The notes: generated by a model from the letters alone, not told the origin. A stretch of DNA of 64,000 nucleotides from Longimicrobiales bacterium (GCA_963422615.1 OY730414.1:1658302-1722301); one strand, 5' to 3'. Positions 342-62,384 are shown, numbered from the stretch's first letter. Numbers and translations are program-made.

Positions 342-437
342 GCCGGCGATGATGTTGTCGGCCGCCTCGTCGTCGCCCTTGAGCAGCACGTCGGCCGTGC
401 AGATGGTGTAGGGGCCCACTTCTGTCAACTCCTGTCG
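342..437 (-). pseudogene. hsdM: Short remnant resembling a type I restriction-modification methyltransferase (HsdM)
   Basis: Manual minus-strand translation gives RQELTEVGPYTICTADVLLKGDDEAADNIIAG, resembling the HsdM segment GQE..ETYAICKAD(M/L)LLKG....ADNI.GG that precedes the NPPY/F motif. Similarity stops there and no NPPY follows, although the frame stays open to the window edge. Confidence 0.5.
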
Positions 438-540
438 GGAAGTTGCACCAAGACAATCTAGTTGATATTGTTGCATTTGAATCGATCGGAGCTACTTCAA
501 CAGCCAGCGGAGCACCTCCGGAACGGCGAGGACAAGAAGA

Positions 541-2403
541 GTGGACGGAGAAATGATCACGACAGCCAGCACAGGGAAGCCTTCCAGGACATCGCGATTC
601 GGTTGGCCGTTCTTTCGCCGCAACCGGCTACCGAAGGGACAAGAATCGGATGAAGGCACCTCGGAGGAGGGGAATGAAAGGGCCGCCACTGCCTCCTCGG
701 ATCGGCCCCCGCAATCCTCGGCCAACGGTCAATTGTCGGTTGCGTTTGGGAGCCCCGAAGGCCGAAGCGCAGATCCCGTAGACCGGCCAGATTGGGACGG
801 GCGACCGCCCACCGAACATCAGCGCCGTAACATCCGGGTGCTGGGTGGCAACCCGGCGGACGTACGGACGAAACAGGAAGCCAGCGATCTCATTGACCGT
901 CTGCGTCGTCTGCAGGGTCCTTCACCCCTTGATCCGTACAAACTGGAGAAGCGGGGGAAAGAAGCCGGCGGCGAAGCGGGGTCGGATTGGAAGTCGGCTC
1001 ACGATAGTCTTCTGGCTGGCCTGCGCCTTGACCTGCAGCAGTACATCAACGCCACATTGGACAGCCTCAGGTCAATGCTCAGTGAGTCGTGTGGGTCCAA
1101 AGGGGGCAGACTCTTCCAGCCTCAGAGGTTGGTTCGAGAGGCAGAGGTACAGCTTGAGCGCCTCCGGGTGTGGCGGCGCAGCGGGCTGCAAGCGGGGGTT
1201 CCGATGCCGGAGATCCGCCCGCCGCCACCGGAAGGCGTAACCCAGGGTGTGAGTGGGGGCGGGGGAAGTGTCTCCGAGCGCGGGGATCCTGAGGAGTCTG
1301 CCGTCCCCACGGCACGGGAGGGGCCCTCGGGGTGGTGGTTGATAGCTACCTGTTCGGTAATTGTAATCTTGGAGTCGCTTCTCAACGTCTCACTTCTCAT
1401 GAACGCGTTGGAGACTGGGATACTGGGGGCAATTTTGCTGGCTTTTCTGGTATCTGGGATCAACGTCGGCGGGCTAGGGATCGGCGGCGGTTTGCTGTTT
1501 TCTCTGCTTCGAAGGCAGCCTTGGGCCAAGGGTCTTGTGCAGGGAGCGTTTTTTTCTGGGTGGCTGGTCGTCGCGATGGGGTTCAGCCTCATCGCCGGCC
1601 GTCACAGGGAGGCGTATTCGCGCATTGTTGAAGCCGTAAGACTCGATCCGACCGGGGCGCGTCCGTCCCCGCAGGAACTGATGCCCGGGATCGCTTTCAA
1701 TCCCCTGACGTGGGACTTCCAGGCCCTGCTGTTCGCCTTGTTGGGCCTGATTCTGTGTGCCGTGGGCTTCGCCAAGGGCTTTACGTTCATCAAGGCGGGA
1801 AAACCCGGTGCGGCGGATGCGAATAGGACGGATGCGAATACCTTGGGGGATGGGGACACGCTCGGGCAAAATGGCCGCGCCGGCGCCGGATCAAACCGTC
1901 ACGCCGGAACGGACCGTCACATCGTCACGGCCTACGAAGAAGTGCTCAATCAATTCCAAGTCGGCGTCAGTGCCCTGCGCTCCGAAGCGGCGGAATGGTA
2001 CGGAACCCTCAACCAGAAGAGCCGCGACATTCATCACACGGTCAGCATGATCGCGGATGAGAAGAACCGTCAGGCATGCATGGATTGTGTCACCCACGCC
2101 TTCATCCGGGAATACAACAATGAGAACGTCGAAAAAATAGAATTGACAACGGTAGAGGAGTATCGGCAGCAGAAATACTCGGAACCCTTGTTGGTCACCC
2201 CATCGGACGCGGGGACGCTCGAAGAAGCCGACGCACTCGCCGCCGAGTGGAGAGAATCCGGACAGGAGGACCTGGAACGGCGGATTACGGAAGCACAGGA
2301 GGAAATGATGGCCCTTTGGATTCGCTACTGGCCCCTTATACTCGGCTCGGGTCAGGTCCAGGAAATCGATAAAGGTGGGGTGAAGGGAGTGTATGCAAGG
2401 TAG
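541..2403 (+). CDS. Uncharacterised multi-pass membrane protein with long soluble N- and C-terminal helical regions
   Basis: 620-aa ORF with about 4 hydrophobic segments (GWWLIATCSVIVILESLLN, GILGAILLAFLVSGINVGG, AFFSGWLVVAMGFSLIAG, ALLFALLGLILCAVGF). The N-terminal PTEHQ...TKQEASDLIDRL motif resembles DUF3072. Overlaps the next gene by 11 nt. Confidence 0.75.
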   Translation: MDGEMITTASTGKPSRTSRFGWPFFRRNRLPKGQESDEGTSEEGNERAATASSDRPPQSSANGQLSVAFGSPEGRSADPVDRPDWDGRPPTEHQRRNIRVLGGNPADVRTKQEASDLIDRLRRLQGPSPLDPYKLEKRGKEAGGEAGSDWKSAHDSLLAGLRLDLQQYINATLDSLRSMLSESCGSKGGRLFQPQRLVREAEVQLERLRVWRRSGLQAGVPMPEIRPPPPEGVTQGVSGGGGSVSERGDPEESAVPTAREGPSGWWLIATCSVIVILESLLNVSLLMNALETGILGAILLAFLVSGINVGGLGIGGGLLFSLLRRQPWAKGLVQGAFFSGWLVVAMGFSLIAGRHREAYSRIVEAVRLDPTGARPSPQELMPGIAFNPLTWDFQALLFALLGLILCAVGFAKGFTFIKAGKPGAADANRTDANTLGDGDTLGQNGRAGAGSNRHAGTDRHIVTAYEEVLNQFQVGVSALRSEAAEWYGTLNQKSRDIHHTVSMIADEKNRQACMDCVTHAFIREYNNENVEKIELTTVEEYRQQKYSEPLLVTPSDAGTLEEADALAAEWRESGQEDLERRITEAQEEMMALWIRYWPLILGSGQVQEIDKGGVKGVYAR

Positions 2404-3184
2404 AGCTAATCGAGGCAGAAGAGTATGGGTATGGCCTCTCGTGATAATACTCGCTTCCTTTTTTCTAGCGGGTGTATGCGTGTTTTTTGCGTGGGACACG
2501 AATCAACGCAGGGTTGGCCCACCGGACTACTGTCCGACCGGAACCTGGTCGCAGGAGCGGAAAGGCATCCGGATTCCTGGGCACACGGCGATCCTGATCG
2601 ACACGTCCAACAGGATCGGGACCGAGGACCGGACGCTGGCCTTCGAGGCCGCCACAACCTGGGCCAGGGACCTCGCGCCCTTTCTGCAGCGCCTGTCCAT
2701 CTACGGGTTGCCCGAGTCCGGTCGGGAAATGAAGCCCAGCAGCGACTCCTTTTGCGTGCCGAAGGAGGGGGACGATGCCAACCTGATTTATGAGCATCCC
2801 GTTTTCGTTGAGGCTCAATTTCGCCGCTTTCTGGCGCGTTTGGAATCGATTCTTGCCGAGCTGGTTGATCGTGAAGAGGCGGATCGGTCTCCTATCGCCG
2901 AGACCATGGCGGCGTTGGTTGATCAACATGATGATCTGGATTCCTTTCTGATCGTTTCGGACATGCTCCAGAACACGGACGCATGGAGCCATTACTTGAG
3001 TCAAGGGAGTGCGACCGAAGCGGCTGTCACCTGCGGTCAAATCACAGCACCGGGGAAAGTGAAGGCGGTCTACGTGTACCACATTGACCGCCAGTTGGAG
3101 GTTCAGACTTCGAAGTGGCCGGACGATTGGTGGCGGGAGTGCTTGGCCGACATTGAAACCCGAATGCTCAACGACTCAAGGTAG
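2393..3184 (+). CDS. Membrane-anchored vWA-like (alpha/beta) protein
   Basis: N-terminal TM anchor, AILIDTS (degenerate MIDAS DxSxS), SPIAE and FLIVSDMLQN motifs typical of vWA-like folds. AAGGGAG ribosome-binding-like sequence just upstream. Confidence 0.7.
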   Translation: MQGRANRGRRVWVWPLVIILASFFLAGVCVFFAWDTNQRRVGPPDYCPTGTWSQERKGIRIPGHTAILIDTSNRIGTEDRTLAFEAATTWARDLAPFLQRLSIYGLPESGREMKPSSDSFCVPKEGDDANLIYEHPVFVEAQFRRFLARLESILAELVDREEADRSPIAETMAALVDQHDDLDSFLIVSDMLQNTDAWSHYLSQGSATEAAVTCGQITAPGKVKAVYVYHIDRQLEVQTSKWPDDWWRECLADIETRMLNDSR

Positions 3185-3326: not shown

Positions 3327-4199
3327 TCACACCCTCAAAGGCAAAGCCCCCTGGCGTCGACGCAAGTTCTCGATAAGGGTGGCCTCTTCTCTTCCTACTC
3401 GCATGTGCTCGTGGCGCGGCTGATTTCCGTGACAAACCGCGCACAACGCCTTCAGGTTTGACCGAGCGTTGTTGGTTTTCACGCCGTCGATGTGGTGCAC
3501 GTGCAGCAGCCGCCGGTGTTCCTTCTCCTTCAGGTCGACGCGACATTCCTCGCATTTGAAGGCATGCTCTTCCTTGTATTCCTTGGAAATGCGATTCCAG
3601 TCCGGTCCATACGCTCCATCGGGAGTACCCGCCCGTCGCTTCGGCATCTTCTCGAAGTGCGTGCGGTAGGCGTCAAAGAACTCGCTCCACTTGAATTCCC
3701 GAAAAACCCGGGATCGATTCCTCGTGGAGCCTTTGTAGTTCAGATGCCACAGACAGTTCTTGCAGACTCTCAATCTGGCCTTGCCCTCGACAGGATTTCT
3801 GTCGTCATCCTGTCCCGTGACATGGAATTCGCCGCCGACATCGTTCGTTGCTACATAGCGCTGGAATCGCCCTTCCTCCTTCATTTCCTGCAAGGTCTTG
3901 CAGTCGGCGACATGCACCTTCTTGCCCTTCTTCGCGTCCTGGAGTACGTCCTCAATTCTCCACCCGTGATCCTGAATGTACAGCAATACCTGTCGGCCCT
4001 GATAGCTGAGCAATCCCAACTTAGAATCGATCTGGATCTCGGATAAATCAACCGTGATGCCTTCTCCCAGCTGGATGTCGATCGGATCTGGCGGATCGAT
4101 TCCACGGCGAACATCGATGACCAGATTCGTGAGTACGGACTCCGCTCCCATGCGGTGTACTGCTTCTTCCAGAAGTGAAAAATCGACGTTCAGACGCAT
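3327..4199 (-). CDS. zorE: Zorya type II effector ZorE, HNH endonuclease
   Basis: ATG at 4199 after GGAGAGG. Motifs DPIDIQL, GLLSYQGRQVLLYIQDH, HVADCKTLQEM, LRVCKNCL..LNYKG and HNH region CEEC...HVHHIDGVKTNN..NL..LCAVCH. Lies directly downstream of zorAB. Confidence 0.9.
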   Translation of the reverse strand: MRLNVDFSLLEEAVHRMGAESVLTNLVIDVRRGIDPPDPIDIQLGEGITVDLSEIQIDSKLGLLSYQGRQVLLYIQDHGWRIEDVLQDAKKGKKVHVADCKTLQEMKEEGRFQRYVATNDVGGEFHVTGQDDDRNPVEGKARLRVCKNCLWHLNYKGSTRNRSRVFREFKWSEFFDAYRTHFEKMPKRRAGTPDGAYGPDWNRISKEYKEEHAFKCEECRVDLKEKEHRRLLHVHHIDGVKTNNARSNLKALCAVCHGNQPRHEHMRVGREEATLIENLRRRQGALPLRV

Positions 4200-4204
4200 G
4201 GCAA

Positions 4205-4918
4205 TCACCTCTCCAGAATTCTGCGAATCTGCACTTCGGCGTTGGTCAACACCCGGAACAACACCCGCCTGGACGCATCCGGATCTTCGCGGCCGATCGG
4301 GTTCAAAACGACACGGGACGACGAAAAGCCGACTGCGGCGACCTTGCGTTTGACCCAACTCCGATCACTGACGGTCGTGGGAAGCCGATAGACGTGCTCC
4401 AGTACCGAGCGGGTGCGTCCTTGCGACAAACGCATGTTGCGGAAGTACGCCTGATCTTCACTGACCCCCTCCCAGTCGGTAGAGGTGTGCCCTTCGATAC
4501 GCACTCCGTCAATGTTCTCGTCGAACTCCCGGAGCACTCGCAGGTATCGGGGGAAAAAATCGCCTAGAATGGACGCGAAACGGGGCCGTAGGGCAATGGA
4601 ACCGACCTCGAACAGCACTTCGGGAGACATGAACTCGAATGTCATGGCCTCTAGGTCTATTGCCGCGTCCCACTGCTCCAGATCGTTCTCGAATTCTTGG
4701 TGCAGGGCTTGGCTGATGGCGACCTGCCCTTCCCGATACGCCACTGCCACGCCGCGCATGCGGTCCCGATCTTGGGACGCGCTGCGCATGAGCCCGACGG
4801 ATATGAGCAGGAAGACCATCATCAACCCTGCCATCAGGTCGGAGATCGTCAACCAATGCTCCCCTTCGCCCCCACCGGACCGGTTCGATCCGAACAGACG
4901 ATCCGCCCACGGGCTCAT
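4205..4918 (-). CDS. zorB: Zorya ZorB, MotB/OmpA-like peptidoglycan-binding membrane subunit
   Basis: HWLTISDLMAGLMMVF TM with conserved Asp. OmpA domain RIEGHTS...NMRLSQGR..SV...SRRV.FRV. ATGA overlap with the zorA stop codon. Confidence 0.92.
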   Translation of the reverse strand: MSPWADRLFGSNRSGGGEGEHWLTISDLMAGLMMVFLLISVGLMRSASQDRDRMRGVAVAYREGQVAISQALHQEFENDLEQWDAAIDLEAMTFEFMSPEVLFEVGSIALRPRFASILGDFFPRYLRVLREFDENIDGVRIEGHTSTDWEGVSEDQAYFRNMRLSQGRTRSVLEHVYRLPTTVSDRSWVKRKVAAVGFSSSRVVLNPIGREDPDASRRVLFRVLTNAEVQIRRILER

Positions 4919-6363
4919 TGCCAATTTCCTCTCCGGACAATTTCCTTCATCTGCCGCGTGAGCTTCGTATAGTCGGCTACGAACTTACCCGTGATCTGGC
5001 TCAACGCGTTGCCCATCTGTTGCATTACCCGGGTCACCTCCTGGGACAGAGCCTCGTCCAGCGCTTCGATCTGTTTGCTTACGCCTTCGCCGGTTCGCGT
5101 AACGGCCTCCTGTGTCCCATCCAGCATCGTCTTGACCATGGTATTCGTAGCTTGATCTTGGGCGCTCAACGTCTCCTTCAGTGCAGACTCCAACCGCGAC
5201 TGCATTCGCAGAATGGCTTCGGCCACATGATCGTGCAGCACTTCTACTTCGTTTTGGATCTTTTGGGACGCCTGTCCCAGGTGCTCCAGCAACTGTCGAG
5301 ACTTCTCCTGCTGTTCGCCGACGTCGTTCTGCAGCTCGATGAAGTTCTCGCCGGCCAAGCGGACGGCCGCAGCGATGTCCTGCGTCATCGCCTCCACGTG
5401 CGCTTGTGTCTGCGGCACCGCTTCCACAGCGCGGTCGCGCAGCTCCGCGAAGGCAGCCAGATGACGTTCGAGCTCTTCGATCTCCCGACCGGCCATTCTT
5501 ACGATTTCAGTGAGCGCTTCCAGCGTGTCCGGAATTACCTGGGTGCGCTGAGCGATTATCCTCACCGACCCTTCGATCGCCGTGATCTGCCGCACAGAAT
5601 CGTCGTATAGCTTGTGAAGCTGTTCGAGCTGTCGCCGGTACCCTTCCTGCCATTCCACAAGCCTTCGCACCGAGTCGTCAAGCTTCTTGAAGTTGTCGCC
5701 GAACTGCTCCGTCAAGTTCTGGTTGAAGTCGACGATGACCTCCTTCAGCGCCTGAATTACCTGCTCCGTGGCCGACTTGGAGAGCATCTCCGAGAAGGTA
5801 TGCAGTTGTTCCCACAACTCGGTCTGGAATCGCTTACGGACTTGAGTGTCTTCCCGCCGCCGGTCCGCCATGTCCGTCCGCAGCAGTTTCAGTTGTCCAG
5901 CCAGACTGGACTCCTCCTGCCCGGCGATGGCGTCCCGGGTCGTCTCCAGCAGCTCCTTCTGCTGCGTTAGTACGGTAAAGATGTCTTTTGGCCCAACTTC
6001 TGTGTCCGCTTCTTCGATGGTTTTGCTCGGCAGAAACACCTCAAAGCCTCGAAAGACTACGCTCGCAAATATGCCGGCGATACTGCTGATGAAGGCGGTC
6101 TTCAAGCCTTCCAACAACCCCTCGATGCTCTCGTCTAACTGTCCTGGATCGAAGTCCAGCAGCCCCACCACGATCCCGACGAAGGTGCCGAGGATGCCGA
6201 GCGAAGCGAGCAGCGCCGGCGCACGAGACGTCAGGGGCGGAGGCTTTCCTTTCCAAGCAATTGCGAGGCAGAACAAGAAGAGGACAACGATCAGCCACAA
6301 GAAGAATTCCGTGACCGCGCTCGGCTCCAGCCCGCGCAGAAGCGACTCAACCCAATTACTCAT
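4915..6363 (-). CDS. zorA: Zorya ZorA, MotA/TolQ/ExbB-like proton channel with long helical tail
   Basis: TM motifs SLGILGTFVGIVVGL and GLKTAFISSIAG. Tail contains ATEQVIQALKEVIVDFNQNLTEQFGDNFKKL..SV..LVEWQE.Y, characteristic of type II ZorA. Confidence 0.92.
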   Translation of the reverse strand: MSNWVESLLRGLEPSAVTEFFLWLIVVLFLFCLAIAWKGKPPPLTSRAPALLASLGILGTFVGIVVGLLDFDPGQLDESIEGLLEGLKTAFISSIAGIFASVVFRGFEVFLPSKTIEEADTEVGPKDIFTVLTQQKELLETTRDAIAGQEESSLAGQLKLLRTDMADRRREDTQVRKRFQTELWEQLHTFSEMLSKSATEQVIQALKEVIVDFNQNLTEQFGDNFKKLDDSVRRLVEWQEGYRRQLEQLHKLYDDSVRQITAIEGSVRIIAQRTQVIPDTLEALTEIVRMAGREIEELERHLAAFAELRDRAVEAVPQTQAHVEAMTQDIAAAVRLAGENFIELQNDVGEQQEKSRQLLEHLGQASQKIQNEVEVLHDHVAEAILRMQSRLESALKETLSAQDQATNTMVKTMLDGTQEAVTRTGEGVSKQIEALDEALSQEVTRVMQQMGNALSQITGKFVADYTKLTRQMKEIVRRGNWQ

Positions 6364-56273: not shown

Positions 56274-59200
56274 ATGCGATTCCGTTTCGTCTGTGCTGCG
56301 GTGCCAACGTTGGTCGGCCTCTTTGCCGTCCTTCCCGCAACTGCCCAAAATGTGCCTTCTTCGGCGTTCCAAGCCATGGATTTCCGACACATCGGCCCGG
56401 TTGGGAACCGCGTCACTTCGGTGGCGGGGGTGCCGGGCGACCCGCTGACCTATTACGCGGGCGCCGCTTCGGGCGGACTCTGGAAGACGGAGGACGGGGG
56501 TGTCAATTGGAGGCCCGTCTTTGACGACCAGCCGGTTCACGCTATCGGGGAAGTGGAGGTCTCGGCCTCCGATCCCAACCTCGTGTGGGTGGGAACCGGG
56601 GAGCCCTTCATTCGCTCCAACGTGTCCATCGGGAACGGCGTCTGGAAGTCCGTGGATGCGGGGGAGACATGGACCCACATGGGGCTTGAGGGGACGGGTC
56701 GGATCAGCCGCATCATCGTTCATCCGACGAACCCGGACGTCGTGTACGCCGCGGCCATCGGACACGGCTATGCGCCTCAGCGAGCGCGGGGGATCTTCCG
56801 CACCATGGACGGCGGCGAGACCTGGGAGCACGTGCTCTTCGTGGACGACGAGACCGGTGCCAGCGACTTGGTCATGGACCCTGCCAATCCTCGCACGCTC
56901 TTCACGGGCACTTGGCAGATCGCCATCCGGACGTGGACCCGGAAGTCCGGCGGGCCGGGCAGCGCCGTCCACGTCTCCCGGGACGGTGGAACCACGTGGA
57001 TGCGGATGGAAGGAAACGGCTTGCCCGAGCGCGAAATCGGCAAGATCGCCCTGTGCATGAGCGCCGACGACCCGGGGCGGGTCTACGCGCTCATTGAGAC
57101 GGGCGACGGCGTGCCTTGGGAGGGCGGCGACACCGACGGAGGCGAACTCTGGCGCTCCGACGACGGGGGGCGCAGCTGGTCCCTCACGAGCTACAACCGG
57201 GACTTGGCCGGGCGCACGGCCTACTACACGCGCTGCGAGGTGAATCCGGACGACGCCGACGAAGCCTACTTCCTGGCTGCGGCCTACAGCACCACCTTGG
57301 ACGGTGGGGTGACGTCGACGGCGGCGCCGTTCCTTCAAGGCCCCGTATGGGACCACCACGACATGTGGATCGACCCCGGCGACGGGGACCGCCAGATCGT
57401 GGCCGGCGACGGCGGGCTCGCCATTTCCCGGAACCGGGGGGAGACTTGGTACCGGGTACAGTTGCCCATCGCGCAGATGTACCACGTCACGGTGGACAAC
57501 GCGATCCCCTACAACGTCATGGGCAACCGCCAGGATGGTCCCTCCACCCGGGGGCCCAGCAACAGCCGCACCGGGGGCCTCTTCCTGTCCGGGATTCCCC
57601 GGGGGATGTGGCACACGGTGGGGGGCGGGGAATCCGGCTTCGCCACCCCTGACCCCACGAATCACAACATCGTGTGGTCCAGCGCTTCAGGGGCGGGGGG
57701 TGGCGGGGGCATCGTCTCCCGCTGGGACGCGCGTACCCGCCAGTACCGGGAGGTCGAAGTCTGGCCGGAGTCCACCATCGGCCATCCCGCGGACAGCCTT
57801 CGCTATCGATTCCAGTGGACCTTCCCGCTTCTGATCTCCCCTCACGATCCGAACACCGTGTATGTGACCAGCCAGCATGTTCATCGCACCACGAACCGGG
57901 GGCAGAGTTGGGAGGTGATCAGCCCGGATCTCAGCACCAATAACCGGGAGCGCATGGGCATCAGCGGGGGACTCACCCCCGACAACATCGGGGTGGAGTA
58001 CTGTTGCGTGATCTACGCCTTCGACGAATCCCCCCTGGAGCCCGGCGTCCTGTGGGCGGGCACCAACGACGGGCTCGTGCACGTCAGCCGGGACGGGGGA
58101 GAAAGCTGGATCAACGTGACCGCAAACATCCCGGACCTGCTCCCGGATGGGGTGGTAAGAGGAATCGACGCCTCCCGTCACGCCACGGGGAAGGCGTACA
58201 TGGTCATTGAACACCACCAGGTCGGGAACTTCGAAGCCCGGGCGTACCGGACGGAGGACTATGGGGAGAGCTGGACCCGGATTACGAACGGCATCGACGA
58301 CGGTGTTCTGAGCTACACCCGGAGCATCCACGAAGACCCGGTGCGGCCCGGCCTCCTGTACCTGGGGACCGAAGCGTCCCTGTACGTCTCCTTCGATGAC
58401 GGTGAACAGTGGCAATCGCTCCATACCCACAACCTGCCCCATACGCCGATGTACGGCTTGGTCGTGCAGGAGCACTTCAACGACTTGGTGGTGGGGACCT
58501 ACGGGCGGGGATTTTGGATCCTGGACGACGTGACGCCGCTCCAACAGCTCACCCCAGAAGTCGCCGCTCGGCCGGTCCACCTCTTTGAGCCTCGGGCTGC
58601 CTACCGCTTCCGGCCTGTGTCCGAGCCCTTCACCATGTTCGACGACCAGTCCGATGGGGAAAACCCGCCGTACGGAGCTTCGATTAACTATTGGCTCGGC
58701 GGGGAGACGGAAGACAGCGTGAAGGTCGAAGTCTCGAACGCTAGCGGCGAAGTTGTGCGGACGCTGGAAGGAACCGGAGAAGCGGGGGTGAATCGGGTCT
58801 GGTGGAACTTGGCGGGTGAATCGGCAACCGAGGTCCGCTTGCGTACCAAGCCCCTGTTCGCCGAAGACATCGATCTGGGGGATGAGCGATGGCGGCCGCT
58901 CCCGAGTGTTCTTGGCGGTCCCGGCGGTACAGCAACCGTTCTGCAGCCCCCCGGGGTGTACACCCTTACCCTGAAGGTTGGGGATGAGACCTTCCGACAG
59001 ACCCTTGAGGTACGGAAGGATCCCCACTCGGAGGGCACCCTCGGGGACATTCGCGCCCAGCTGGCCATGCTGGCGGACATCCGCGCCGACTACGAGACCG
59101 CGGCCGCCTTGGTCAACCGAGTGGAGTGGGTCCGTCGGCAGCTTCTGGACGTGAAGGCCGTGCTGGAGGACCGGGACGACGCCAGCGCCGCCGCCCTGGT

Positions 59201-59504
59201 TGCCGCCGCCGACTCCCTGAACGAACGCTTCGTCGCGGCGGAGCAGGGGCTTTTCCAGATGCGCGCAACCGGCACGGGCCAGGACGGTATCCGCTATCCT
59301 ACCCGCCTCTTGGAGCGCTTGACCTATCTCTTCAATACCGTGGCGGTGGGGGACTTTCGTCCCACGGACTCCCAAGGGGAGGTCCACGCCGTCCTGAAGG
59401 AACGGCTGGAGCGGATCCGGGTTGCACTGGAGGCGCTGTTGGAAAATGATCTGGCGGAGTTCAACCGGCGAATTCAGACGCTGGGAATGGGTGTGGTCTC
59501 GTGA
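56274..59504 (+). CDS. Secreted VPS10/BNR-repeat beta-propeller protein (glycosyl hydrolase/sialidase-like)
   Basis: AAGGAGG RBS, signal peptide, FRHIGP.GNR, many Asp-box repeats (KTEDGG.NW, KS.DAG.TW, RS.DGG.SW, VS.DGG.SW), GTYGRG.WILDD, C-terminal helical bundle. Confidence 0.9.
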   Translation: MRFRFVCAAVPTLVGLFAVLPATAQNVPSSAFQAMDFRHIGPVGNRVTSVAGVPGDPLTYYAGAASGGLWKTEDGGVNWRPVFDDQPVHAIGEVEVSASDPNLVWVGTGEPFIRSNVSIGNGVWKSVDAGETWTHMGLEGTGRISRIIVHPTNPDVVYAAAIGHGYAPQRARGIFRTMDGGETWEHVLFVDDETGASDLVMDPANPRTLFTGTWQIAIRTWTRKSGGPGSAVHVSRDGGTTWMRMEGNGLPEREIGKIALCMSADDPGRVYALIETGDGVPWEGGDTDGGELWRSDDGGRSWSLTSYNRDLAGRTAYYTRCEVNPDDADEAYFLAAAYSTTLDGGVTSTAAPFLQGPVWDHHDMWIDPGDGDRQIVAGDGGLAISRNRGETWYRVQLPIAQMYHVTVDNAIPYNVMGNRQDGPSTRGPSNSRTGGLFLSGIPRGMWHTVGGGESGFATPDPTNHNIVWSSASGAGGGGGIVSRWDARTRQYREVEVWPESTIGHPADSLRYRFQWTFPLLISPHDPNTVYVTSQHVHRTTNRGQSWEVISPDLSTNNRERMGISGGLTPDNIGVEYCCVIYAFDESPLEPGVLWAGTNDGLVHVSRDGGESWINVTANIPDLLPDGVVRGIDASRHATGKAYMVIEHHQVGNFEARAYRTEDYGESWTRITNGIDDGVLSYTRSIHEDPVRPGLLYLGTEASLYVSFDDGEQWQSLHTHNLPHTPMYGLVVQEHFNDLVVGTYGRGFWILDDVTPLQQLTPEVAARPVHLFEPRAAYRFRPVSEPFTMFDDQSDGENPPYGASINYWLGGETEDSVKVEVSNASGEVVRTLEGTGEAGVNRVWWNLAGESATEVRLRTKPLFAEDIDLGDERWRPLPSVLGGPGGTATVLQPPGVYTLTLKVGDETFRQTLEVRKDPHSEGTLGDIRAQLAMLADIRADYETAAALVNRVEWVRRQLLDVKAVLEDRDDASAAALVAAADSLNERFVAAEQGLFQMRATGTGQDGIRYPTRLLERLTYLFNTVAVGDFRPTDSQGEVHAVLKERLERIRVALEALLENDLAEFNRRIQTLGMGVVS

Positions 59505-59776
59505 GGGTAAGTGCGGATTCGGTTCCTCGGGGGAGACGATGGGGGGCACTGGAGCGGTCGCACCGCGTTGGGTTCCGTGTTGGCATTGTGTAATAAGTAC
59601 AGTTATAGCATATACTTACGGCCATTTTTGGATGGTCCGCCATTCGCCACTGGCAAAATTTATCTTGCGTTTCTCCGTTTCTCTATGTATTCTTTTACGT
59701 AAGCTTCAGAAACGGAGCTGCAAGAAGAAGGCCGGGATAGAGTCCGGCGACTAGGTGGCATCACTGACAAGAAGGA

Positions 59777-59923
59777 GTGAAGTACGATGCTGAAAAAGGC
59801 TTCCAGGAAAGCGATGTGTGCCGGTGGGGTTCCTTCTGTAGCGATTCCCCGGGCTCGGACACTGGGTGCGACCGGATAGGCCCAGGCTGTAAGTCCTACA
59901 TCTGCTCCGTTGAGATACGGTAA
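59777..59923 (+). CDS. Candidate 48-aa Cys-rich peptide
   Basis: Manual translation from GTG: VKYDAEKGFQESDVCRWGSFCSDSPGSDTGCDRIGPGCKSYICSVEIR. Five Cys. Below the ORF-track cutoff and start signal is weak. Confidence 0.4.
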   Translation: MKYDAEKGFQESDVCRWGSFCSDSPGSDTGCDRIGPGCKSYICSVEIR

Positions 59924-60126
59924 TCGGAGGGTGCTTACTTATCCCTTTGGCATGGAAAAAAATAGGATGGCGAAATCGAAATGGCGGGGTTTCGTTCGTG
60001 GCATTTTCGGGGGCTGAGGGGGAGGGGAAATCGTCTCCGGGAGTGGTGAGCTTCGGCTACCTTGCCCACGATGGAAGTCATGGTTCATGTGAGGAACCAC
60101 CTCTGAACAGGCAGGATGCAAGTGTC

Positions 60127-61323
60127 ATGACCAACTTTCCAAGAGCAACAAGCTGGGCTCGTGTGTTGTTCCCGATCTTTCTCTTGTCAATTGGGCAAGG
60201 ATGTGATCGAGCTCCGCAGGTGGTGGTACACCCAACCAATCAGAACTTTCCTCCACCTAATGCCGTTCCGATTGTCCCAGACACAATTCCAGTGGGGTTG
60301 TCACCGGATCGTCTTGCCACTTGGACAGCTGCGCGCTACAGCTTAGAGAATGCCAAAACATTGTATTGACTTGGAATTCCAACAGGAGAAGGGCCAGAGC
60401 TTTTTGGTCAAATAGATGATGTTGTTCTAAGCCGCGATAATCATCTCTTTGTTTTAGACGGGCATGCCCAGAAAGTTCGTATTTTTGATTTGACTGGGCA
60501 GTTTGTGGCGGATTTCGGCGGTCTGGGTGACGGACCTGAAGAGTTACGCGGTGCATATGAGATTGTAAAAGAAGAGTCTGGAAATATATTGCTACTTGGT
60601 ACTGGTCGCCAAATAAAGGTGTTTCATCCTATTGCTTCAGACTACCGCTACCGGGAGACCCGCCCCATTCCGCTTTCTGGCGGCAGATTTTGCATAACAG
60701 GGTCGGGACGCACAATTGTTGCCGGTGCGGACACTAGATCCGATCGCAACGTGATCCTACATGAGATTCCTTCTCGGACTGGGGAGACGGTCAGGAGTTT
60801 TGGCGTAGGATATCTGGATTCATCGCTGTTGGTCCGTCATATGATGGCTAACCGCGGGCCGGTAGCATGTGTCGACTATCAGGGAACAGAATCGGTGGTT
60901 CATGCATTTGCCCCCTTGAGTTTTCTGCGACTGATGAGCCTTGTTGACGGCTCTGTATTTTGGACCGCTCAGTTGATGGATCACCGTCAGCTAATGATGG
61001 AGTCAGATCGAACTGGATTTACCCAGAACGCCCTGACGGATTGGGATATAGTTGTATCGTTGTTGCCGTACTTGGGATCCCATCTCTTGTTGCAAGTTCA
61101 ACGTTTTAGGGAAATGACACCGGAAGAAATCAGAAAAGGCGGTAGGCCCGAATCGACCTTTTCTACTTACTTGCTTGACTTACCAACCGGGAGAGGAGCG
61201 AGAGTGGCTACCGGTCCTTCGCGGATCGTGGGAATTAATGAGAGCCGGTATGCCGTGGTAAGCAGTGACCCTTATCCGCAAATTGAGGTTCGTGCCTTGG
61301 AGATTGGGGGAATACAACATTGA
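60127..61323 (+). pseudogene. 6-bladed beta-propeller (NHL-like) lipoprotein interrupted by one in-frame TGA at 60367-60369
   Basis: ORFs 60127-60369 and 60490-61323 are in the same frame. Reading through gives ...KTLY*LGIPTGEGPELFGQIDDVVLSRDNHLFVLDGHAQKVRIFDLTGQFVADFGGLGDGPEE. Lipobox-like GQGC. Confidence 0.8.
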
Positions 61324-61895
61324 CCGATAAGCGTCTGTATTTTGGAACAGTGGCTGTGGGGTTGACACTGGGTTTGTTACTCGGAGTTCGCGGGATGCTT
61401 CCAACCCCGGCGATTGAGATCACATGGCGTGTGCCATGGAGCGACGACAGCTCCTTTATTCCGTCGGCATCTCTTGCCGGGGGTGAGGAGGTTCTTTTTG
61501 TATATTTGGGGGCTTCGTCTTGTGTGTGGTCCAACGTAGGTGATTTGCCGGAGGCCGTACGTAGCATTAGGAACCAGTGGTACGAATTTGCAAGAGCGAA
61601 CGGAAAAGGGTTTGCTACAGTGGGCGTTGCACGAGACGTTATTGTTGATGAAGGTATGAAACACTTGACGAAGTATGGATTGTTTGACGAAGTAGTGGCA
61701 GGTCGTGGATGGTTGAACATCGGTTTTTTCAAGTATGTGTATGGAGAGATGGCGGGGCCTGCGGCAACACCTCAAGTACTCATCATTGAACGTACTGTGA
61801 ACCGCATAGCTGGTCAGACGTGGATCAGCAACGAACAAGTTGTACACCGCTTTGTTGGAGCTAACGAAATACTGAATGAATTGGGGTCAGAGTGA
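61320..61895 (+). CDS. Membrane-anchored thioredoxin-like protein (CxxS)
   Basis: N-terminal TM, EVLFVYLGASSCVWS, GVA.D strand, cis-Pro-like ATPQVLII. Overlaps the upstream stop (TTGA). Confidence 0.65.
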   Translation: MTDKRLYFGTVAVGLTLGLLLGVRGMLPTPAIEITWRVPWSDDSSFIPSASLAGGEEVLFVYLGASSCVWSNVGDLPEAVRSIRNQWYEFARANGKGFATVGVARDVIVDEGMKHLTKYGLFDEVVAGRGWLNIGFFKYVYGEMAGPAATPQVLIIERTVNRIAGQTWISNEQVVHRFVGANEILNELGSE

Positions 61896-62384
61896 CTTGG
61901 ATCCGTGTACCCGAGGAGTGGCGGCGAAGGCAAGGGGCCTTCTAGCTAGAAGCTTGTGACCTCGCGTTGGACTGTGGCCGGATTGTTTGGAGCTGATCAA
62001 GGACGTTGTCGATTGTCACGGCCCTGAATTCGACGAAGCGAACCTGGAGGCAACCCCGGGGTTCCTCCCTTCGCGCCAAATGCCCGCGCCTTCAGCGCGT
62101 ATGGATTCGAACCGGATTACGTGCTCCAGCTGGATCGGATCGTTTGCGAGATGACGATATGACCGCGTACGCTGAGCTCGGCCCGGAGTCCGGTTCGGGT
62201 TGAGCCACAGACGGGTACGCATCCTTCCCAAAGCCTTTCCCTTCTGGCCATCCGCGGTCTGGCTGCCCTAAGTTTGGAATCGTTGGCACAGAGGGCTCAA
62301 CGAGATATCGTAGTTAGCTGTCCTTGTAGGCTGAAAGCGTGAAGCTTCCCACTACGATCCCTGAAAAACGAATGTGACTCGCCC

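Follow-up and report, generated by a model that had tools for sequence, protein, structure and literature searches.

A membrane and vWA gene pair beside Zorya II is the front half of an unnamed Zorya-like cassette and is kept without the motor genes in its own lineage

The closest described systems to the locus reported here are Zorya I–III, in which a ZorA5B2 motor is accompanied by ZorC/D, ZorE or ZorF/G, as set out in the accessible parts of PMC11946911 and PMC11890865. Within those parts, PMC11890865 lists types I–III only, none of them with the genes described below, and PMC11946911 treats the role of ZorB Asp26. Phage sensing by Zorya-type motors is still inferred. Here, we describe two overlapping genes, G1 and G2 (positions 541 to 3184), beside a complete Zorya II locus in a 64,000-nucleotide stretch of DNA from a Longimicrobiales bacterium (GCA_963422615.1 OY730414.1:1658302-1722301), hereafter the window. 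G1-G2 forms the conserved first half of a four-gene Zorya-like cassette that has no name (G1-G2-G3-G4), and the window's lineage retains it under purifying selection in the absence of the motor genes.

G1 (541..2403, + strand) encodes a four-transmembrane (TM) inner-membrane protein of 620 amino acids (aa) if read from a GTG. The probable start is the ATG at 553, which has GGAG upstream and yields 616 aa. G2 (2393..3184, + strand; 263 aa) combines an N-terminal membrane anchor with a predicted periplasmic domain of the vWA fold. The reading frames overlap by 11 nucleotides (nt), and the two form an obligate gene pair, G1 lying directly upstream in 151 of the 155 loci with a strong G2 (loci that are not independent, as many are kin and a few are duplicates). 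Neither protein had a match in PADLOC (2023), NCBIfam (June 2026) or Pfam, and neither matched the PADLOC Zor models, including ZorC/D/E/F/G, at E 0.1. This agrees with an earlier note on this DNA, which had found no named system for the pair. Literature searches, in which subscription papers were thinly covered, turned up neither the pair nor the cassette; the candidate tables of large defence screens (DefensePredictor, domain-centric screens) may include the proteins.

Loci were fetched for 42 of 43 matches in the host's class and 27 of 30 in Alphaproteobacteria. Two co-oriented membrane genes, G3 and G4, follow the pair in 28 and 13 of these loci, respectively; lone pairs account for 14 and 8, a further four loci have no G1 match and two were left unscored. 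The cassette copies match the G2 profile at E 1e-40 to 1e-87, and their upstream genes match the G1 profiles. The window's G1 and G2 are thus homologous to the first two cassette genes, in the same order and with the same overlap. Unlike the cassette, the window locus has no G3 or G4 (the pair is followed by zorE, which is encoded on the opposite strand), neither gene was found elsewhere in the genome, its G1 has lost a DPYPGY motif and its G2 has gained a second Cys pair.

G3 contains a MotA/ExbB-type hairpin with a conserved Thr and Gly, followed by a long helical tail. Hairpin and tail align with the window's ZorA2 (hhalign 96.2%, E 2.4e-9) and more weakly with the ZorA1 of the same genome (77%). 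G4 has a single TM helix with an invariant Glu, aligned at low probability to the ZorB Asp; an OmpA-type motif is present in 11/50 G4s and a Cys-containing PPCW C-terminal domain in 33/50, and a Paracoccus G4 copy matches ZorB2 at E 2.5e-25. A thermonuclease (SNase) is found in 8/50 cassette loci and is fused to the G4 C-terminus in two of them; one further G4 ends in GmrSD_C. These three ZorB-like G4s (L160:11596-13302, L211:11550-13007 and L154:6691-8448) carry the fusion at the end predicted to be periplasmic.

What the cassette shares with Zorya is a ZorA-like TM hairpin that runs on into a long helical tail, a ZorB/MotB-like helix bearing an acidic residue, a patchy spread, frequent proximity to defence genes and an occasional link to nucleases. 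Unlike Zorya, its first two genes match none of ZorA–G, a Glu replaces ZorB Asp26, the Cys-containing C-terminal domain of most G4s is not OmpA, the nucleases are predicted to be periplasmic, and the window's clade is without any motor genes. The pair works like part of a Zorya-type envelope system, yet belongs to none of Zorya I–III. The earlier note had seen a parallel between G1/G2 and ZorA/ZorB. A link to Zorya-like biology holds, but it is a different one: separate ZorA- and ZorB-like genes follow the pair in most relatives, and G1 and G2 are not themselves the counterparts of ZorA and ZorB.

The same data bear on whether G1 and G2 could themselves build a ZorA/ZorB-like 5:2 ion motor in which a vWA head replaces the peptidoglycan-binding domain. 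We regard this as highly improbable. The likeness is topological only, and vWA-headed motor axles are predicted in another family (accessible part of PMC12204202). However, the G1 profile aligns with the window's ZorA2 at an hhalign probability of 1%, where G3 gives 96%; G1 contains no MotA/ExbB signature; the G2 TM helix has neither a conserved Asp/Glu nor an SHLS motif; and genuine motor-like genes adjoin the pair in the cassette. G1 was accordingly rejected as a ZorA, having no family match either, and G2 as a ZorB, given its vWA fold.

A second set of described relatives are the TolQ-associated SHLS-vWA/TPH-vWA transducers, which, according to the accessible part of PMC12204202, share with G2 an inner-membrane-anchored periplasmic vWA domain near MotA/TolQ-like genes. 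As far as that part of PMC12204202 describes them, G2 differs in having no SHLS motif, no trans-pore Asp and no long stalk, and in being single rather than one of a heterologous pair. Its fixed partner is a four-TM protein unrelated to TolQ, and no tolQ-like gene lies beside the window's pair.

The single TM helix of G2 spans residues 16-34 (2438..2494, + strand), and no polar or acidic residue in it is conserved across 141 G2 sequences. The vWA domain follows at residues 60-263 (2570..3181, + strand). In a predicted AF2 structure (pLDDT 93.8), vWA domains head both fold searches, Foldseek and VIA, and the model indicates that G2 adopts the vWA Rossmann-like fold. The best VIA match is the CLCA1 vWA domain (Z 11.1, rmsd 3.4, 153 residues aligned). 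Overall, residues 60-263 resemble vWA and integrin I-domains (CLCA1 vWA 6pyo, CD11b I-domain 6rhv, Catenulispora vWA 4fx5) at Z 10-11 and rmsd 3.4-3.7. They differ from these in sequence (7-15% identity, below all Pfam VWA models), in carrying extra predicted disulfides and in the replacement of DxSxS by D-x-S/T-D/N.

There are 290 G2 relatives at the 50% cluster level. Across the 141 sequences, C47, D70, C121, S189 and W247 are invariant, and S/T72 (100%), S166 (98%), E170 and D190 (99%) nearly so. The motifs quoted in the earlier note (IDTS, SPI.E, SDMLQN) are conserved columns of the family, and its description of one TM helix and a Cys-containing vWA-like domain agrees with the single hydropathy peak and the fold searches. 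C214 and C250 are both present in 21 sequences, both absent from 117 and discordant in three, and form a clade-specific second Cys pair. Their co-occurrence points to a second disulfide, and together with the invariant C47/C121 it would place the G2 head in the periplasm. None of the 141 relatives shares a Pfam family, a PDB sequence search with the pair gave no meaningful match, and the ESM Atlas returned unnamed clusters only, one vWA cluster among them at 0.86. The predicted G1-G2 complex scored 0.26 against a mark of 0.32 and is used neither for nor against binding.

MoxR-vWA ternary conflict systems combine an adjacent MoxR AAA+ ATPase with a cytoplasmic vWA protein. This assignment was rejected for the pair: no recurrent ATPase was found beside strong homologues, and G2 is membrane-anchored with disulfide-like Cys pairs.

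G1 has a low-complexity N-terminus of about 130 aa and helical arms both N- and C-terminal to its membrane domain (residues ~267-411; 1339..1773, + strand). Four hydropathy peaks at residues ~267, 294, 335 and 393 and an all-helical predicted structure with four TM helices and long arms on either side (pLDDT 85.7, pTM 0.58) match the topology proposed in the earlier note. Fold searches with G1 found generic helical bundles only (no Foldseek match at E<=0.001; best Z about 10, to short bundles), and such matches do not amount to a new fold. The near-invariant residues E278, N282, G293, A301, N308, R356 and G402 (620-aa numbering) are intramembrane or juxtamembrane. Since basic residues mark the TM2-3 loop and the segment that follows TM4, both arms are probably cytoplasmic, and the TM3-4 loop of about 40 aa, with its conserved AHYR-like motif, would therefore face the periplasm. 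A DPYPGY-like motif after TM4 occurs in 40/44 cassette G1s, 25/64 Hyphomonadaceae/Maricaulaceae G1s, 10/17 other lone pairs and 0/19 G1s of the window's clade, and is a candidate motor contact. A single loss explains its absence from that clade.

The pair is patchy and mobile in its spread and occurs in varied genomes, on plasmids, in several phyla and at unrelated insertion sites. In evenly drawn samples, the host's class (Gemmatimonadota-like) had matches in 40 of 400 genomes and Alphaproteobacteria in 28 of 401; a looser cut-off gave matches in 19 of 401 Pseudomonadota genomes, and 2 of 201 genomes matched in the phylum of a Desulfobulbus genome. These counts take in the centre genome and, for the host's class, also one unpublished genome. 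Among 24 plasmid matches, all seven regions that were opened had the four-gene order. With the queries used, no relative was found in a phage collection or in viral contigs. One locus carries a second G1 paralogue after G1-G2 (L114:8240-11594), and divergent G2 relatives stand immediately 5' of type IV coupling-protein genes at L223:10586 and L231:4943-6865.

The window's G2 falls into a clade of 19 loci, all without G3 and G4 (FastTree support 1.0). IQ-TREE, run without bootstraps, also recovers this clade as monophyletic and does not keep L172 beside L155; several independent motor losses are therefore not claimed. Clade members come from records of Gemmatimonadota, Acidobacteriota, Rhodothermales and Gammaproteobacteria, sit at unrelated insertion sites and share 43-63% G2 identity. 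A model of the G3 membrane part has no match in the window's genome, which is 98% complete; among 43 genomes selected because they hold lone pairs, it matches seven, and three of those seven also carry a cassette. In eight within-clade comparisons, dN/dS was 0.05-0.30 for both genes, a measure of the relatives rather than of the window's copy. A second pair of the same motor-less clade lies 150 kb away in the same genome (L002:9736-12045, G000:C1 ~1809735-1812044, - strand; G1 31% and G2 45% identical). Its neighbours, named from sequence reading, encode a TPR protein, an Ig-like protein, a serine hydrolase and a proline dehydrogenase. About 7 kb from this second copy, a DEDDh exonuclease gene that matches the PADLOC candidate PDC-S48 (L002:1087-2375, E 1e-95) adjoins a tRNA-Arg.

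These observations also speak to the idea that the window's pair is a decaying relic of the cassette. The motor genes and the DPYPGY motif are missing, a TM3 Asn has become Ser in the window's G1, and an hsdM remnant and a frameshifted methyltransferase gene adjoin the pair. Yet neither reading frame is broken and the two are coupled, the motor-less clade has deep roots and is represented twice in this genome, and its relatives are under purifying selection. Such decay is very hard to credit.

We tentatively favour, while giving it somewhat less than even chances, the reading that G1-G2 is an envelope sensor-transducer able to work without the motor and most likely guarding against phage or other incoming DNA. 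The disulfide-stabilised periplasmic vWA head of G2 would bind an envelope or invader ligand at a putative metal site, and G1, with buried polar residues in its four TM helices and a cytoplasmic helical bundle, would relay the signal through movement of its arms or through a small ion path that it opens. Within the complete cassette, the G1-G2 signal may gate or aim the motor and nuclease; in the motor-less clade, the pair may act alone as an envelope guard. Defence islands and other mobile sites would carry the pair as cargo, and the neighbouring Zorya II would not be needed. The G1-G2 complex, ligand binding at the vWA site, passage of a signal or ions through the G1 TM helices and guarding of the envelope against incoming DNA are all inferred steps. 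Since the front half persists both alone and in the cassette, sensor and motor are separable for testing, and both forms occur in culturable bacteria (Rhizobium and Paracoccus plasmids; Maricaulis, Oceanicaulis and Henriciella).

A bolder version seems to us unlikely, though worth stating. It holds that the pair is a self-sufficient, undescribed immune sensor-channel whose vWA head detects the entry of phage or conjugative DNA and opens the four-TM pore, either alone or coupled to a ZorAB-like motor of the Glu type that is accompanied by a periplasmic nuclease. If true, the cassette would be a further Zorya-like type with a detachable sensor, destroying DNA before it reaches the cytoplasm.

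A defensive role was weighed by scanning three genes on each side of the pair against PADLOC (E<=1e-20). The scan covered 25 of 30 independent cassette contexts and 25 of 29 lone-pair contexts, before locus L222 was moved to the cassettes for its G3 match adjacent to the pair, and the controls were 20 sites some 0.7 Mb distant, drawn from 20 of these genomes. Matches to mad3 (L217, L172), SspA/DndA (L025), PDC-S68 (L152), MzaA (L228), DpdF (L239) and mad2 (L251) were dropped as generic or partial. The cassette's neighbours include Gabija, BREX, Bunzi, ShosTA and type I restriction-modification (RM I). One cassette also splits a type III CRISPR locus, where it is inserted between cas6 and csx1/cas10 (L210:7299-15884).

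Several results weigh against a guarding sensor. Enrichment of the cassette beside defence genes is borderline (12/26 vs 4/20 for controls, one-sided p 0.06; 13/26 vs 6/20, p 0.14, with all matches counted), and lone pairs are not enriched (4/24 vs 4/20, one-sided p 0.75), in samples of about 25 loci that cannot resolve a twofold enrichment. The consistent pairing of homologues stands; the defence neighbourhood suggested in the earlier note is borderline for the cassette and shows no enrichment over controls for lone pairs. In the window's clade, 6/17 loci lie beside defence genes with the window included (p 0.25) and 5/16 without it, two short contigs being left out; the five neighbours are BREX, RM II, a GmrSD-like gene and two PADLOC candidate families only. 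No nuclease or other effector travels with any of the 19 clade loci, and the second copy in the genome, set among housekeeping genes, has no PADLOC match within three genes. In the proteins themselves, the canonical MIDAS is DxSxS...T...D, whereas the G2 set is non-canonical: D70-x-S/T72-D/N73, S166 and D190 form a MIDAS-like putative metal site with D/N at 73 and the second Ser missing. Moreover, the window's G1 has Ser where the family has the near-invariant TM3 Asn. The tree does not order its deep branches, and the motor may have been lost or added later.

Contexts outside defence point the same way. In many species of Hyphomonadaceae/Maricaulaceae, the lone pair has fixed housekeeping neighbours (ThiF, O-methyltransferase, PTS EIIA, GST, amidase and flavodoxin-fold genes), a fixed position unlike that of most defence systems. 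Distant G1/G2 relatives are found in Tad-pilus loci, after tadB/tadC, DUF192 and an AAA ATPase gene, with G1 aligning to the Tad-locus cousin at an hhalign probability of 94%. Housekeeping and secretion contexts, which the earlier note had named as counting against its proposal, thus do occur. A Tad-associated G1/G2 subfamily is present in relatives of the host (L117, L119, L121, L123). Weak G2 matches also follow an OmpA lipoprotein and a 5-6-TM protein; in Pseudomonadota these two and the weak G2-like vWA gene make up a recurrent trio (L166-L170).

Taken with these contexts, G1-G2 may instead be a general envelope module for stress sensing, surface or cell-wall attachment or appendage assembly, with defence islands one landing place among many. 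The stable housekeeping synteny, the lone pairs without defence enrichment and the cousins beside Tad genes or behind OmpA lipoproteins all suit this explanation, as does the use of vWA domains for adhesion and force transfer in other envelope machines described in the accessible part of PMC12204202. However, the spread is very patchy (7-10% of genomes in two classes), the clade has been transferred between phyla to many unrelated sites, and the commonest partners are ZorA/ZorB-like genes and nucleases. We consider a general role a real possibility, if on balance a doubtful one. Even without a defensive role, the pair would stand as an unnamed module of the envelope that recurs next to motors, Tad pili and OmpA lipoproteins.

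The position of the pair in the window bears on a partnership with Zorya II. As the earlier note described, the overlapping, coupled genes occupy sequence of low GC content, with an hsdM remnant on one side and a complete Zorya II on the other. The GC content of the pair, 0.597, is at the 3.9th percentile of same-sized windows of the genome (median 0.646), and the low-GC stretch spans about window -800 to 6400 (~7 kb), including a frameshifted SAM methyltransferase gene, the hsdM remnant, the pair and Zorya II. Zorya II comprises zorE (zorE2, the HNH nuclease gene; 3327..4196, PADLOC E 6e-105), zorB2 (4205..4924, E 2e-88) and zorA2 (4915..6363, E 4e-157), all on the - strand and convergent with G1-G2.

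From this arrangement, one could suppose that the pair lost its own motor and now works with ZorA2B2 in trans, as an accessory of Zorya II. The loci are directly adjacent on one shared island, the best match of the G3 TM model in the genome is ZorA2 (E 2.5e-4), and Zorya I is also present. Against this, the pair is convergent on the opposite strand, the scanned flanks and the gene lists for 18 clade relatives, two of which sit on short contigs, contain no Zorya gene, and the clade's G1s have no DPYPGY motif. We judge such an accessory role quite improbable; the small probability left over from all the readings weighed here goes to some explanation of another kind. Membership of the pair in the Zorya II operon was likewise rejected, given the opposite strand and the failure of the 18 relatives to keep the pair beside zorABE. 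Because no clade relative lies beside Zorya, housekeeping sites are fixed, lone pairs show no enrichment and distant cousins occur in Tad loci, the proximity of the pair to Zorya II is best explained by co-location on one island rather than by partnership.

The hsdM remnant (type I restriction-modification methyltransferase; approx. 354..479, - strand) is a neighbour outside the module. It matches the segment just before NPPY in the type I methyltransferases of two relatives (2/60 other genomes, E 0.002-0.005). No repeat or tRNA bounding the island was found, no sigma-70 promoter was found, and terminators were at chance level. Across window -246 to 10000, a contig from a public DNA run agrees with the sequence at every letter, although the source sample may be what was sequenced in this run. 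At the left end of the island, a SAM-dependent methyltransferase gene changes frame at a G-rich run (window about -640 to 221, + strand; L001:17362-18221); reads are cut at the G-rich repeat, so that phase variation and assembly error are not distinguishable.

Elsewhere in the genome, a complete Zorya I (zorA1, B1, C, D) lies at L127:7999-15550 (G000:C1 ~236000-243550), so the genome holds types I and II. Four co-oriented genes at L128:4842-10453 (G000:C1 ~1216800-1222450) encode proteins of 434, 496 (two TM helices), 571 and 257 aa. Only the fourth matches a PADLOC model, as a ZorB/MotB-like protein (ZorB3, E 4e-14), and the locus is possibly a further non-canonical Zorya-like one. Another low-GC stretch (0.51-0.59) lies near the right end of the window, at 59000-62000.

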